DNA of 44,601 nucleotides from IMG/VR virus record IMGVR_UViG_2711768005_000013; one strand, written 5' to 3'. This DNA comes from a virus. Lineage: Duplodnaviria > Heunggongvirae > Uroviricota > Caudoviricetes. Below, piece by piece: positions 6,062-14,606 of this stretch (position 1 is the stretch's first letter; each line of letters opens with the position of its first letter). The notes under the pieces were generated by a model. The model was not told where the DNA came from. It did no database searches and worked only from the letters and a program-made list of their open reading frames with translations. A program made the position numbers and the translations under genes.

Positions 6062-6399
6062 CAGATCACCACTTCGTCAAACTGACACGAAAAATCGGTA
6101 TAGGTGATATGTTCTGTCGCTGACCACGTTCGACACACCACTCTGATTTTTCTGTTAATACCCGGCGGGCGCCAAAAAAAAGATTTATAGCCTTCATGCC
6201 GGGCTAAAAATTTTTCAAATGAATCACGTTCATTCGCCTCAACTTTGAAATCACAGGTGAAAACGCGCAGAGAATGATTAAGTCCATTTGGACTTCGTTG
6301 CTCATAACCATCACCAAATCTTACAGTTTTTATCGATGGTTTATTTTCTGTTTTCATTCCATCCTCTGGTAACCAGTGAAATTCTTCCGTATTAGCCAC
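6061..6399 (-). CDS. M: Minor tail protein M
   Basis: 112 aa between H and L with [10 protein letters not shown] motif resembling lambda M (VRFGDGYSQR). Confidence 0.75.
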
Positions 6400-9300
6400 T
6401 TAACATTCCCCCATCACGTCGCATATTTAACAGATTGCCCTGCACCCGCTGATCAACCATCCCCATAAGTGCTTTTATTGCCTGAGGGCCAATCTCTCCA
6501 TTCTGGCCGTCATTTTGAATAGTGATTTGGTATACAGGGGCATAGGTAATATCTCCGCCTCCATTACCACTTTTACTATTAATAGCTCTGACACCAAGAG
6601 AACCATCGGAAGTTCGTGTTAATGGCATAATGGCTTCCGGTCCAGCCTCACCAAAAACACCAGCCCCTTTTGCAAAAGCAAAAAATTGCGGGGAATCATA
6701 AATACCGTTCGAATACGTGCTCAATGACGGAGACTCATAAACACCGCCCTTTGCATTCGGAATAAATTTACTAATAGCACTCCCGATAGTTCCTAAAATC
6801 CCCCCAGAAGAACTGTTACTAATGCTGTCGAAAATCCCAGTAATTGAAGCCTTTAATGCTATTCGACTAAGATCCGAAATCACGGAAGTAGCGAAAGAAC
6901 GAAAATTTGCCTTGCCTGTCGTGACAAAATCACCCAGCGCATCGGTCATCCCATCAAACATCTGAGTCGTGGTTGATTTTATCTGCTCACTGATATCCTT
7001 AGTGTCATCCAGCCAGTTATTGAATCCCTGGGAGGCACCACTAACCCAGTCTCCTGCCTGAATATCGAGCTGCTCGTTTTTCTGTCTGACAATTTCTTTT
7101 TCCCGTTCCAGAGCATCATTCAGAGCCTGCATTTTCTCTTGAAAAACATGATCTGACATTCCACGGGATTTATCTGCATAGTCACGTTCAAGTTGCAGAC
7201 GCTGATTGTTATATCCATGTTCAATCCGCAGTAATTCCTGCTGGCGTTGCTGATTTTTATCGCCAACCCCATAACCAGCAATCTGAATATCATACCCCTG
7301 CTGACGATTATCAATCGAAGCCTGCAATGAATCACGCCATGCTGTTATTTCGGCGGATTCCTTGATTAGCCTGTTATTTTTTTCAATCGCAACATTTTTC
7401 TCCATCAACGTGGTTATTTCTTCCCGGTGTAAGAGAAGCGATTTCTGATCCTGGGTTAATTTCGATGATGGTCGTGACTCTAGGTCGGCAATCCGCTGAC
7501 GCCACTTAACCAGTTCCTGTTCAGAGGAACTTAATTTAACGGTCAACTCAGCTTGTGAACTTAGTAACGCATTCTGTTGATTCAGATGATCAATCATTCG
7601 TTGGGCTGCATCATCAGAATAACCTTTCGCCTTTGGTTGCTTTGGATCTTTATAACGCTCATTTATTTGAGCGATAAGATTATTATATTCTTCCTTTGAA
7701 TACTGATTCTTTAGCTTTTCCAGTTTTGCAAGTTCACTAGCTCTCTGCTGCTCCCGGGTCTGATATTGTTTTGAAAAGGCATCTGCTCTCTGTCTGAGTT
7801 CAATTCCTTCCTGTTGTCGCTTGTTGTAATCGTTTATTGATGAATTTAGTACGTCCTGAGCAATTTTTTCTGCTTGAAGTACGCCCAATTGCTGCTTTAA
7901 TCGTGCCAGCCTTTTATTTTGAGCTCCGCCATCTCCAATGCCACCTAACCCGAAAACTCCGGGTCGGGTATTTTTTTCTATTTCATCAATTTGACGGAGA
8001 ACATCTGAGATTTTTTGATCAAGGGAGGCCTCACGGCCAATATCCAGCATGGAATCCCATGCCCATTTTGCGGAGTCTGCGACAGCTTTCCATGCAGTCT
8101 CAAGATAACCAAGATTTTCTTTAATCTGGTTGGTGCGCTGGATCATTGAGGATGAGTATTCTTCTGTCGCAATGCGGGCGGCCTCCTGCTGGTTCCCTTC
8201 ATCCTGTAGCGCCTTAATCTGGTTATAAGTCGCAAGTGTCAGAAAATGGTACTGATCATTAAGTTTTGATATGGCACTGACAGGATCCTTTGCAATTTCA
8301 TTGAAGTCATTAACCAGTTGTTCGGTTGATATTCCTGTTACTTCGCTCGTTTTTACTATCGCTGTCGTCACTTGCTCCAGCGAACTGCTCGCTACCTTTC
8401 CCGAACGCACAAGCTGATTTAATACTGCCGCCGCAGCACCAGTTGTCGAATCAGCCGCATTCCCGGCACGTTGAGCTATATCGCCCAATTGCCCGCTGGT
8501 TGTCCCCAACTGATTTCCGGTAAGAATAAGAGATTTATTAAATTCGTCCTGCTCCTGAGAGCCTTTATAGTAAGCCAGTCCTAAGACCCCAACGGCTGCT
8601 GCGGCCAGGGTAAAAGGATTAATTAATCCCAGCACATAAGAACCTACACCTTTGATCGCCGGGCCAATCCCACCGAACATATCTTTTAGCTGGCCGCCCT
8701 GCTGCATTAACACCATAAATGGCGACTGACCAGTGGACAACCCAACAACAATATCCGTCATTTGTACAGGCAACATGCGCATAGCAAAAGCCGTTTGTTT
8801 TGCCGACATTCCGGTTTTGCTTAATTGTGATTGAGTAACCTCAAGCTCACTCCGCATAGCACGAAGTTTTCCAGAAAGCTCCTCATACATTTCAGGAGAA
8901 AGCATCCCCTTAGCTTTTGCTTCATTGAGCTGTTTCTGTTGTTCTACCAGACGATTAAAAGCAGTTCCGACAGGATCAAGTTGAGCAATCAGACGTTGCA
9001 AAGCAACAACCTGTTCATCATGCGCTTTTGCTGCTTCTCGCTCTGCCTGAGCCTCTCCGGTAAGCTCTCGCCGTGTTTCCTGTATTTTTCGGCTATAATT
9101 CTCAAACTGAGAACCATTTATTTTCCCGGATGCAAACGCAGCATTAAGTTCATCATGCTGTTGTTCAAGATTTCTTAGCGCCGCAGCCAGAGGGTCGATC
9201 TTGTCCAGCATTCTTTGAAAGGCCTGAGCCTGCGCTTCCTGCTGGGCGGCAGCAAGTTTTCCGGCCTTCTCGGCTTCTCTCTGCGCTTGCGCAACCCCGC

Positions 9301-9625
9301 TCAATTCCTCTGTGGTTTCATTAAGTTTACGGACAAGAAATTCATATTCTTCTTTATCAATAAGCCCTTTATCGAAAAATTTCTTTAATTCAGAATAGCG
9401 TCGACCGACAGTATCAATTGCGGCACCAACTGGATCAATAGCTGCTTTTAATTTTGCGAGCGCGTTCTTCTCATCTTCTGTTGCCTTAGTCACTTTCCCT
9501 GCGCTATTTGCAGCAGTTTCCCCAGCCTGCGTCATTTTGACTAATGAGGAGGTCAGATTGTCAGCATTATTTTTCGCTCCAGTGCTATCAATAATTATTG
9601 CGAGACGCGAGGTTTGCTCTGCCAT
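6392..9625 (-). CDS. H: Tail tape measure protein
   Basis: 1077 aa, coiled-coil-rich with repeated Q/E/A/K-rich segments and a hydrophobic central block; positioned between G/T and M. Confidence 0.9.
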
Positions 9626-9640
9626 TTATTAAAACTCCTG

Positions 9641-9669
9641 ACAACAAAAAACCCACCGCGAAGTGGGTT
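9641..9669 (-). terminator. Terminator-like hairpin with U-tract about 20 nt upstream of the tape measure start
   Basis: Minus strand: AAACCCAC-TTCGCG-GTGGGTTT (perfect 8-bp stem) followed by TTTTTTGTTG. Confidence 0.45.
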
Positions 9670-9790
9670 TCAGGCGACATAATAGTAGATATAGCGATTA
9701 CGAGGCCACGCAATGCTTTTCTCCAGGAGCATCATCGATTTAATTAAAGACACCATCACATCTCTGTAACAGAGTGTACGTAATTAACAA

Positions 9791-10111
9791 CTACACACAC
9801 TGCTCCTGAAAATACTGGTCATCCAGTGCAAAGATCACTGCTTCAAATTCATCGCGCTCAATCAATACCGGATGAGTGGCTAAATATTCATTTATCTCTG
9901 TCAGAGATAAAGGCAAAGGCACCCCAGCCATTCCAGCATAACGTCGGGCACGGGATATTACCGAATAGGCGTACAACAACTCCTTAAGCACCGGGTCTAT
10001 TTCTGGTTCCGGTATCGGTGGCAACCTGAGTTTTTCTCGCTTCCATCTTGCCTTTTCCCCCCTTTCTCCCCCGAACTCCGATAACCACCGCTGGGCAGCT
10101 ATGGCTTTTTT
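9791..10111 (-). CDS. T segment of the G-T tail assembly chaperone fusion (reached by -1 frameshift from G)
   Basis: The -1 frame is open with no stop from the slippery heptamer through 9791 (AIAAQRWLSEFGGERGEKARWKREKLRLPPIPEPEIDPVLKELLYAY...). Confidence 0.6.
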   Translation of the reverse strand, partial: KKAIAAQRWLSEFGGERGEKARWKREKLRLPPIPEPEIDPVLKELLYAYSVISRARRYAGMAGVPLPLSLTEINEYLATHPVLIERDEFEAVIFALDDQYFQEQCV

Positions 10112-10560
10112 ATCGTATCCTGCTTCTGCTGCTCTTTACCCTGGGCGATGCTGGCTGCTTCTGCAAGGATCTGCCAGTACAACTCTGGATTCTGCTTAAG
10201 CAGCGCGATCCCTCGTTCTGCCGTATATTCCAGTGCAACCTCAACACCATTAACCAGTTCACCAACCCCTTTCCAGTCTTTCAGCAGATAACGAGCGGCA
10301 TTATCAATGAGTAAATCATCAACAGAATCCACCTCGGAAACCTTTGAAATATCAAACTCCTTCGTTCCGACGTGCAAACTGGCATCCATTTTCTCAATGT
10401 GGCGACGGATTAATGCATTACGGGAGCGATACTGATCGTTATCGCTGCTTGCCACCAACAGTTTTAACCCGTCTACAGGTTTTAAGTCCTTCATTGGCGT
10501 AAACCAGCGTTCTCCACCAATGATAATTTTCTGATTAAGAATAAACATCCATAACCTCAT
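10099..10560 (-). CDS. Tail assembly chaperone G
   Basis: 153 aa ORF immediately upstream of the slippery site; alternative ATG at 10548 (MFILNQ) with GAGG SD; not lambda G-like in sequence but in the G position. Confidence 0.65.
   Translation of the reverse strand: MRLWMFILNQKIIIGGERWFTPMKDLKPVDGLKLLVASSDNDQYRSRNALIRRHIEKMDASLHVGTKEFDISKVSEVDSVDDLLIDNAARYLLKDWKGVGELVNGVEVALEYTAERGIALLKQNPELYWQILAEAASIAQGKEQQKQDTIKKP
10105..10111 (-). promoter_or_regulatory. Programmed -1 ribosomal frameshift heptamer A_AAA_AAG
   Basis: Minus-strand AAAAAAG with zero-frame codons AAA AAG, two codons before the G stop codon TAG (10099-10101). Confidence 0.6.
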
Positions 10561-10608
10561 TCAATGCGTCCCCCTGTAGGGCAGTACCACAGGAGGAATA
10601 ACGGAAAA

Positions 10609-11571
10609 TCAACTAATCGCCTCAGCACTGGCTTTTGCGATCACGGCAGCCGGGGAATTTTTTTTTCTGGTTATCGTAGGTGCTTCATCTGCTGCGGTAA
10701 TGCTCAATTGAACCTGGATAATGTCGCTATTACCCCCATCAGGCCATTCACCTGACACCTGAACCTTCGGGAAACTGAAAGTGTATGCCCCCTCTCCATT
10801 CGAAAGCGTGAAGCTGAACGGAACTGTTTCTCCAGTCAGTGTTTTACTCCAGATTTCCCACGCGGCTTTAGACCATGAAAGCGTCACCGTACCGGACGGT
10901 GTAAAAGTAGTCGGAATATTTGCTCCTGCATAAGGCGAGCCAGTCCCGATACAACGCTGTGTCTGGAGTTTGTTATCGAACTGAATATCAAAACTGTCGA
11001 TACAAAAACCGTTACCTCCGGCAACACCATTCAGGCTTACTGCTGAAACCTCCTTAAACGAATAACGTAGCTTTCCTGCACTATCCACAGGTTCGCCTTT
11101 GATAAAATTCGTATCATCGGCCTTTGATTCCCAGTCCAGTCCGGCAAAGGTTACGGTCGCTGTAATATCGCCGTCGTTAGGGATCTGCATTTTCCATGAG
11201 CCAACCTGCGCTCCTCTGACGACAGAGGCAATTCCGACATCGGACGCATAGGTCGCCAGAGAAAATGTTATTCGCTCATTCCCCATTGTCAGAGAATCGC
11301 CTGACCATTCCGCGCCGAAACAGGATGCAAGAAAATCATCATGTTGACCCCAGCGAAATTTGGTACCAACATCACCGCCGACATCCACAGTGCCAGGCGT
11401 CGCCCCCTGAGCCATCCGGGAGCCACCAATCTCATTATTTTCGCCTTTATTCTGGGTGGGTTTTACTCCCCAGCTTGTGCGTTTTAATAAACTCCAGTCA
11501 CCACTTGCTGGCGTAGTGCCTGCAACCGTCTCCCGGATAAATGCCGAGATAACCTTTGCACCTGAACTCAC
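10609..11571 (-). CDS. Major tail protein
   Basis: 320 aa, position upstream of G/T; Thr/Ser/Gly-rich beta-type composition. Confidence 0.75.
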   Translation of the reverse strand: MSSGAKVISAFIRETVAGTTPASGDWSLLKRTSWGVKPTQNKGENNEIGGSRMAQGATPGTVDVGGDVGTKFRWGQHDDFLASCFGAEWSGDSLTMGNERITFSLATYASDVGIASVVRGAQVGSWKMQIPNDGDITATVTFAGLDWESKADDTNFIKGEPVDSAGKLRYSFKEVSAVSLNGVAGGNGFCIDSFDIQFDNKLQTQRCIGTGSPYAGANIPTTFTPSGTVTLSWSKAAWEIWSKTLTGETVPFSFTLSNGEGAYTFSFPKVQVSGEWPDGGNSDIIQVQLSITAADEAPTITRKKNSPAAVIAKASAEAIS

Positions 11572-13368: not shown

Positions 13369-14508
13369 TTAACCAAGAATCAGACAACCATGTGCCGGCT
13401 TCACTGATGAAACACCCCATGCCAGTCCAACTTCATAGCGCACCTGGCGATACTGACGATACAGTGCAATCTGGAACGTAATCCCTGAAATCGGGTCCGT
13501 AACATTCATTACATCATCAGCATTATCGCCACCTTCCGGCATTGCCGGAGTACGGGATGCCAGCAGAAACGCGTTGCGATCAAACGCCATATTTGCAGTA
13601 AAGGCCCCAACAACTGTGATGGCAGTATCATCGGCCAGATCCTGACGCAGTCCGGGCGCTGCAAGAGTAATCAGATTGCTGGTCGCTGCTGCCACAACAT
13701 ACTGATTCGGATCACCAGCGAACGTAACAATCTGACCTGCAGAAATACTCCCCGAACCAGTATCAATGGAAATAAGAACATCGCCTTCTTTTTTCTCTCC
13801 ATTCACGAGATAACCAGTTGCAGCAACCTTTGGCGCTCGTTTCACACCTGCCGAACTGTGAATATTGAATCCCTCCAGACGCCCCAACACGCCCTCACGC
13901 AGTAGCTGTTCAGTGCCGGATTCATTCACTTTAAACAATACAGACTGTTTTCCGCGCAAATTAGCAATGGCAGTGGAGCCAAGCACCATCTGCAGATCGG
14001 TTGTCGGTGCGCCGTTATCCTCCAGAACCTGACGAGCCAGAGCAGCATCAGAAAGATCATCTTTAACACCAAACGGCGTTGTCCCTGCGGTTCCCACGGC
14101 GCGGGAAGCACCGAAATACAACGCACCAAGATCAGCCTCAACCTCGTTTGCAAGGGCGCGAAAAGCCTGCTTGAACTGATCAGCCAGAATGGTGTTGTAA
14201 GTCCCTGAAGGGCCAAGAGCCAGTTGTTCTTCACCATTCCATTTAACCGGTGCCATTTTGGATTTAGTAATTTTTACATCAACAGTGCCAATATTTTGAT
14301 CACCGGTATTCGGAGCTGACGGCCCCGGTACGATATCTTCGGTTTTCGCCTCAGGCGCAACTGGCGCGGTTACCGTCTGATCTTTTGCTGCGGCGTCAGC
14401 TTTTGCGTTTTTTGCTACCGCAGGGATAAAACCTACCTGCTCACGGGATACAACATCCAGGGCGGTATAAATAGTCGGGATCAACCCGGTCAGGGTATTT
14501 CCAGCCAT
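13369..14508 (-). CDS. Major capsid protein
   Basis: About 380 aa from ATG at 14506-14508 (MAGNTLTGLIP...); the ORF-track start at 14601 is upstream and less likely; located after the scaffold gene. Confidence 0.7.
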   Translation of the reverse strand: MAGNTLTGLIPTIYTALDVVSREQVGFIPAVAKNAKADAAAKDQTVTAPVAPEAKTEDIVPGPSAPNTGDQNIGTVDVKITKSKMAPVKWNGEEQLALGPSGTYNTILADQFKQAFRALANEVEADLGALYFGASRAVGTAGTTPFGVKDDLSDAALARQVLEDNGAPTTDLQMVLGSTAIANLRGKQSVLFKVNESGTEQLLREGVLGRLEGFNIHSSAGVKRAPKVAATGYLVNGEKKEGDVLISIDTGSGSISAGQIVTFAGDPNQYVVAAATSNLITLAAPGLRQDLADDTAITVVGAFTANMAFDRNAFLLASRTPAMPEGGDNADDVMNVTDPISGITFQIALYRQYRQVRYEVGLAWGVSSVKPAHGCLILG

Positions 14509-14606
14509 AATTAAATATTCCTTAAAAATTTGCGTAATTGTGAATAGATGGAGTAATGAGCTATCCAGCCCTGACACCAGCTCCCATCCGGAAGCTGACA
14601 AATGTG

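Follow-up and report, generated by a model that had tools for sequence, protein, structure and literature searches.

The heptamer A_AAA_AAG at positions 10111..10105, on the minus strand of the 44,601-nucleotide stretch of tailed-phage DNA analysed here (the window), is very probably a programmed -1 ribosomal frameshift site through which two tail assembly chaperones would be made from one message. Confidence in this reading is high because the gene order, the frame relation, the in-register heptamer and the comparative signatures all fit the lambda-type G/G-T arrangement. What we infer is that the ribosome slips, how often it does so, and what the G and T domains do. The site itself is real but ordinary: an expected feature of a Rac-like E. 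coli prophage, built on a well-known heptamer, that database annotation has missed.

The zero frame is a G-like tail assembly chaperone gene (10099..10560, minus strand) that encodes 153 aa from ATG 10560 and ends at the stop TAG 10101..10099; the start conserved among homologues is ATG 10548, which gives a product of 149 aa. On the minus strand its last codons read ...CAG GAT ACG ATA AAA AAG CCA TAG, so that, relative to the G frame, the heptamer (10105..10111) has the register X_XXY_YYZ: AT[A AAA AAG] CCA TAG. A preliminary description had placed A_AAA_AAG in the zero frame just before the G stop; its coordinates are correct, and one codon, CCA (10104..10102), intervenes. It had also described the -1 frame as open for about 105 codons to 9791, in agreement with the 104 codons found after the slip, and a -1-frame stop between the heptamer and 10024, which would have spoken against the proposal, is not present. 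The T segment (9791..10105, minus strand) runs in the -1 frame from GCC 10105..10103 to the stop TAG 9793..9791 and would reach expression solely as an extension at the C-terminus of G. Upstream, that frame is closed by TAA 10138..10136 and is open from 10135 until TAG 9793..9791, and joining of G to T by a -1 shift is thus confined to a 12-codon overlap, where A_AAA_AAG is the sole slip motif. Joined across ...QDTIKK|AIAAQRWL..., the predicted G-T fusion has 256 aa, or 252 aa if translation begins at ATG 10548, and the predicted junction peptide is K/AIAAQR with trypsin or ...TIKKAIAAQRWLSE with Glu-C or Asp-N.

How would the two products arise? Most ribosomes would stop at 10101..10099 and release G, of about 150 aa. 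A minority, holding AAA in the P site and AAG in the A site, would slip back by one base; both tRNA-Lys would re-pair with AAA AAA, decoding would resume at GCC 10105..10103, and translation would run on through T to 9791 to yield a G-T fusion of about 252-256 aa. By analogy with lambda (PMC5009743), the tape measure protein would be coated by G and by the G portion of the fusion, and recruitment of the tail tube protein would fall to the T portion. As in lambda, neither G nor G-T would be expected to end up in the virion.

The neighbourhood is that of a tail operon. Immediately upstream of G lies the tail tube (major tail) protein gene (10609..11571, minus strand; Pfam PF18906 Phage_tube_2, E = 9e-32), and downstream of T lies the tape measure protein gene (6392..9625, minus strand; Pfam TMP_2, E = 4e-81, and Tape_meas_lam_C, E = 4e-26). 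The gene order is therefore tube, G, T, tape measure, with the G/T pair between the major tail and tape measure genes. In PHROG 313 ('tail assembly chaperone'), G alone covers profile positions 13-149 of 258 (E = 4e-46). The fusion matches the same profile nearly end to end, over positions 13-246 of 258 (E = 6e-51), and scores 174 bits vs 159 bits for G alone; PHROG 313 thus already includes fused G-T members. The T open reading frame on its own matches PHROG 1189, a family of unknown function (E = 1.4e-36). Other family resources gave less. G has no match in the local Pfam copy; its precomputed Pfam family is PF27119, which that copy does not contain. Among six fusions searched against Pfam, the only match was a sub-threshold one to Phage_TAC_18 (PF23812), on the T of the window. 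NCBIfam returned no match for G or T, and a PDB sequence search with the family profile returned nothing relevant. The spiral tail assembly chaperone fold of HK97 gp13 and Bacillus subtilis YqbN (PDB 2OB9 and 3KLU; Pell et al., 2013) counts among the closest known systems.

AAAAAAG occurs 24 times in the window, both strands counted, and 73 in-frame X_XXY_YYZ heptamers fall in open frames of at least 100 codons. Among these 73, only the one at 10111..10105 sits at the 3' end of a genuine gene and enters a long -1 extension. Three have longer -1 extensions, with host open frames of just 103-115 codons. One of them, at 13935, lies within the capsid gene (13369..14601), whose own frame provides the extension, and it was rejected; the other two are assumed to be artefacts of the same type, spurious frames that overlap real genes.

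The comparison of relatives drew on 91 enterobacterial loci containing the motif, taken from phage records, one-genome-per-species contigs and IMG/VR, with 63-100% amino acid identity to the window. These collapse to 54 distinct sequences, of which 53 were used; locus L017 was dropped, as its T frame is broken. A scan of genome contigs with G found only close relatives (Shigella, Escherichia ruysiae and Citrobacter). The in-frame heptamer is kept in 91/91 enterobacterial loci (53 distinct sequences), and the zero-frame stop is mobile, lying 1, 8, about 40 or about 70 codons past the heptamer according to lineage. As the alignment has it, the fixed element is the heptamer and not the zero-frame stop.

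Conservation of the heptamer extends to its synonymous sites. Of the 99 zero-frame third positions upstream of it, 90 are variable in the set of 53 sequences, and the three third positions inside it are invariant across all 53. The codons of the heptamer region do have synonyms (GTA/ATA for Val/Ile; AAA/AAG for Lys), and the next codon, CCN, shows all four third bases. Taking a 0.09 chance of invariance per site, the probability of three invariant sites is about 8e-4. It is about 8e-3 with only the two heptamer sites that are free of T-coding constraint, the G of AAG being set aside because it is also the first base of a T-frame Ala codon. A coding constraint for Lys-Lys could explain part of the conservation, though the synonymous sites are fixed as well. 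The variable sites switch from zero-frame to -1-frame third positions exactly at the heptamer, and from the G stop to GTG 9991, the start that PGAP gives the small open reading frame, 11/35 first, 9/36 second and 34/36 third positions of the -1 frame are variable. Within the compared sequences, these patterns show that the heptamer is under selection and that, from there on, the -1 frame is selected as protein-coding sequence.

Might G and T instead be two independent genes, with T translated from an internal start (GTG 9991, TTG 10024 or ATG 9931) or by ribosomes that reinitiate once past the G stop, and with the heptamer incidental? This is how GenBank and RefSeq present the locus, as 'YdaY' plus a hypothetical protein of 61-66 aa; joined coding sequences were never found in the annotation examined. 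TTG 10024, however, is present in only 21 of the 53 sequences and GTG 9991 in 24, and no -1-frame start codon is conserved before ATG 9931, which lies 60 codons into T. Inspection of the sequences upstream of 10024 and 9991 revealed no plausible Shine-Dalgarno element. In addition, the stretch ahead of the candidate starts evolves as -1-frame coding sequence, with 34 of 36 third positions variable vs 9-11 of 35-36 at the other two positions, and the synonymous sites in the heptamer are invariant. The amino acid sequence of T between the G stop and the candidate starts is conserved out to Pseudomonas. Independent translation of T is for these reasons considered extremely unlikely, and frameshifting at the heptamer is the preferred reading.

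Searches with the fusion (tblastn) recovered both halves, as two pieces, in phages of Klebsiella (~65% identity) and Erwinia (55%), and also in Pseudomonas phages (32%) and some Acinetobacter phages (31%). In each of the six relatives retrieved, the T frame is offset by -1 from that of G. When homologue fusions from five genera were built at the candidate slip sites and then aligned, the slip-site Lys (AAG) fell in one invariant alignment column, K152. The motif at this junction differs between genera: A_AAA_AAG in Escherichia coli and Klebsiella, C_GCA_AAG followed directly by TAA in Erwinia, G_GAA_AAG in Pseudomonas and G_GGA_AAG, the heptamer of lambda, in Acinetobacter. The common denominator at the junction is an in-register A_AAG and not a homopolymer run. 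A_AAG alone and X_XXA_AAG sites also shift (PMC5009743), and G_CGA_AAG-type sites are used by IS1222 (PMC5009743).

One of these distant loci has already been annotated as a recoded gene. In Acinetobacter phage vB_AbaS_TRS1 (NC_031098), TRS1_19 is a 'tail assembly chaperone' coding sequence joined from two pieces. Its T domain is a true homologue of the one in the window (38.8% identity, E = 4e-6), and it shares the gene position, the junction column and the AAG Lys. It differs in that its G_GGA_AAG lies 27 codons before its G stop and in that the G parts are only about 25% identical.

The variation among junction motifs bears on a second alternative, in which RNA polymerase, not the ribosome, slips at the A6 run and inserts one extra A. 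For bacterial RNA polymerase to slip efficiently, a run of about nine or more is generally required. The protein product would be identical, as the site is a run of six A residues and one added A also gives ...IKKAIAAQ...; moreover, homopolymer length does vary in near-identical relatives at an A-run in the tube gene. Yet homologues have only A3 or A4 at the same column (GCAAAG, GGAAAAG, GGGAAAG), lengths too short for plausible slippage by the polymerase, and what is conserved is the frame in which the AAG codon stands, not how long the run is. The shared A_AAG without a homopolymer run thus argues for ribosomal over transcriptional slippage, and ribosomal slippage on A_AAG is well documented (PMC5009743). 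Transcriptional slippage is accordingly judged very unlikely as the source of the fusion.

The breadth of the junction also bears on the idea of a decayed locus, a defective prophage remnant where mutation has split the G and T frames and no recoding takes place. Rac in E. coli K-12 is indeed defective and retains only a truncated G, ydaY, and some database copies carry indels here (L017, P0002 and P0004). Nevertheless, the -1 relation of G and T holds in all analysed loci except L017, including Salmonella phage SPF_0923, and extends to the sequenced Klebsiella, Erwinia, Pseudomonas and Acinetobacter phages. Since mutation cannot yield a frame offset conserved across genera at one column, decay is excluded for all practical purposes, with next to no probability left to it.

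With programmed ribosomal frameshifting as the favoured mechanism, what might stimulate it? A hairpin of 11 bp (10078..10104, minus strand) follows the heptamer directly, with a spacer of 0, but it is specific to the window. It was rejected as a stimulator, as the 92-nt region has a z score of +0.96 against shuffled sequences and the hairpin is broken in most relatives; it is probably not a stimulator. No conserved downstream stem-loop or pseudoknot was found in the relatives, where the consensus fold is -3.3 kcal/mol and there is no covariation. Shine-Dalgarno-like elements that stimulate -1 shifting from upstream do so at a distance of 9-14 nt (PMC5009743). The only upstream candidate, AGGA at -10..-7, does not vary, one synonymous site included, but it stands 6 nt from the heptamer vs the 9-14 nt range; a correctly spaced upstream Shine-Dalgarno-like element is thus absent, and a role for AGGA as upstream stimulator is unproven.

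The heptamer might need little help. A_AAA_AAG, the natural shift site of dnaX, exceeds related heptamers by far in its tendency to shift in E. coli (PMC5009743), a property attributed to the single E. coli tRNA-Lys that reads both AAA and AAG (PMC5009743). CC is the most shift-prone 3' dinucleotide context (PMC5009743), and CC is what follows the heptamer in the window. The inherent slipperiness of A_AAA_AAG in E. coli is probably what the site works through, without a stimulator. Given an AGGA at just 6 nt and the lack of a conserved structure, one would expect a low efficiency similar to that of lambda, and our own reading, by analogy, is that of an unstimulated slip at the level of lambda, where the G:GT ratio is about 30:1 (PMC5009743).

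The resemblance to lambda is one of arrangement. Lambda G and G-T are said to have been characterized as tail assembly chaperones by Levin, Hendrix and Casjens in 1993 and by Xu, Hendrix and Duda in 2004, 2013 and 2014, and Levin et al. reportedly found in 1993 that the lambda site functions without a structured stimulator. In both phages, two overlapping open reading frames lie between the major tail and tape measure genes, the second in the -1 frame and lacking its own start; shortly before the G stop (5 codons in lambda vs 1 here) comes a heptamer that ends in A_AAG; and no structured stimulator is evident. The preliminary description had likened the locus to the lambda G/G-T arrangement with a different slippery sequence, and had given the lambda slip site as G_GGA_AAG. 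The latter was confirmed on NC_001416, and the former holds in gene order, frame relation, heptamer and comparative signatures. On every point that could be tested, the locus agrees with the conserved G/G-T frameshift arrangement of Xu et al. (2004).

There are differences as well. The heptamer is G_GGA_AAG in lambda vs A_AAA_AAG here, and the lambda T has 144 aa (in a fusion of 279 aa, 135 of them from G) vs 104 aa here. No homology to lambda gpG/gpT could be detected, as hhalign of the six-member fusion profile against lambda G-T gave a probability of 0.1. Lambda gpG belongs to Pfam Phage_TAC_2 and gpT to Pfam Phage_tail_T, whereas G and T here belong to PHROG 313 and 1189. As far as profiles can tell, the arrangement is the same as that of lambda G/G-T, and the protein families are different.

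The dnaX gene is the other obvious comparison. Its Shine-Dalgarno-like stimulator lies about 10 nt upstream of the slip site, and the shift efficiency is about 50%. E. coli dnaX (gamma/tau) and the transposase of IS911 and the IS3 family use the identical A_AAA_AAG and the single tRNA-Lys (PMC5009743). The biological purpose is different in dnaX and IS911, and dnaX reaches its high efficiency with an upstream Shine-Dalgarno-like stimulator and a downstream stem-loop, whereas the present locus has neither a conserved structure nor the right spacing. The features of a dnaX-type stimulated -1 frameshift, an upstream element at 9-14 nt together with a downstream stem-loop, were not found here.

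Could the expectation of a low efficiency be wrong? Several-fold higher shifting is conceivable because this is the shiftiest known E. coli heptamer and the 3' CC is favourable. If it occurred, the G:GT stoichiometry for tail assembly would differ from that of lambda. The Rac remnant of K-12 could likewise still make a frameshifted YdaY-T, since K-12 keeps the heptamer and an intact T open reading frame. That one or other of these holds, i.e. that the site shifts several-fold above the ~3% of lambda or that the K-12 remnant makes a YdaY-T retained by the host, is a speculative suggestion and an unlikely one.

Positions 9500..10700 of the window, used as a 1,201-base query, are 100% identical to Salmonella phage SPF_0923, and the locus is present as a Rac-like prophage in 1073 of 5426 complete E. 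coli genomes, about a fifth, as well as in several sequenced phages. E. coli K-12 ydaY, of 119 aa (L098 2493-2852), corresponds to window positions 10458..10099 (minus strand) and is a 3' remnant of the G gene, joined to a remnant of ynaK by a deletion in Rac; similarity to the window starts at 10450, 8 nt past the ydaY start. By this alignment, ydaY is the truncated 3' part of the predicted Rac tail assembly chaperone gene G. K-12 keeps the in-frame heptamer and an intact, unannotated T open reading frame of 104 codons, followed by ynaA, a tape measure remnant. RefSeq YdaY equals the 3' 119 codons of G, and in intact prophages PGAP has reused this truncated model, with the start at TTG 10458 and not at ATG 10548 or 10560. 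A search of the literature on ydaY with frameshifting or with Rac found, among the papers listed, no title or abstract that concerns this site.

The value of the site lies mainly in annotation, and understanding of the mechanism is unchanged. The K-12 orphan gene ydaY is given an identity, and the truncated start propagated to intact prophages is corrected. A well-supported A_AAA_AAG example is added to the chaperone frameshift sites available for training and testing predictors, and one homologous junction offers a natural series of slip-motif variants.

Several database proteins resemble natural in-frame fusions of G and T and were set aside. P0001 (E. coli NB16F79_39920) is a deletion variant: a deletion in the region that corresponds to window positions ~10150..10111 joins G to the -1 frame upstream of the heptamer, with the junction ...WQILAEA|GYDKKAIAAQRW..., and makes a constitutive in-frame G-T fusion of 240 aa. 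On a reading of the window sequence, the deletion would lie between two GCAGAAGCAG repeats. P0002 and P0004 are homopolymer indels, each with a single base lost from the A-run. These three proteins are evidence neither for nor against recoding. In L017, the T frame is broken by a one-base deletion in a G6 run at ~10056..10051.

The region around the tape measure gene has features of its own. In L003 (Klebsiella phage ST846-OXA48phi9.2), L005 and L006 (Pseudomonas) and L007 (Acinetobacter phage TCUAN1), T is separated from the tape measure gene by one to four additional small open reading frames, and direct adjacency of the two is thus not constant in this family; the Erwinia locus L004 has no extra frames there. 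In the window, the 165-nt gap from the T stop (9791) to the tape measure start (9625) contains a hairpin that resembles an intrinsic terminator (9648..9671, minus strand), consisting of GAAACCCAC TTCG CGGTGGGTTTT followed by a T-run. This is an unexpected site for such an element within a tail operon, and the hairpin may serve as an attenuator. The tape measure gene itself contains, at 8402 (minus strand), an in-frame G_GGA_AAG, the lambda G-T heptamer; its -1 extension has 28 codons, and it is probably incidental.

The A-run of the tube gene is an A9 run, an in-frame A_AAA_AAA, at 10658..10666 (minus strand), 17 codons ahead of the stop of that gene. Near-identical relatives have A9 in 21 loci, A8 in four and A7GC in L056. 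The run may reflect an error in sequencing, mark a mutational hot spot or serve as a slippage site, and a -1 shift there would produce merely a short alternative C-terminus.
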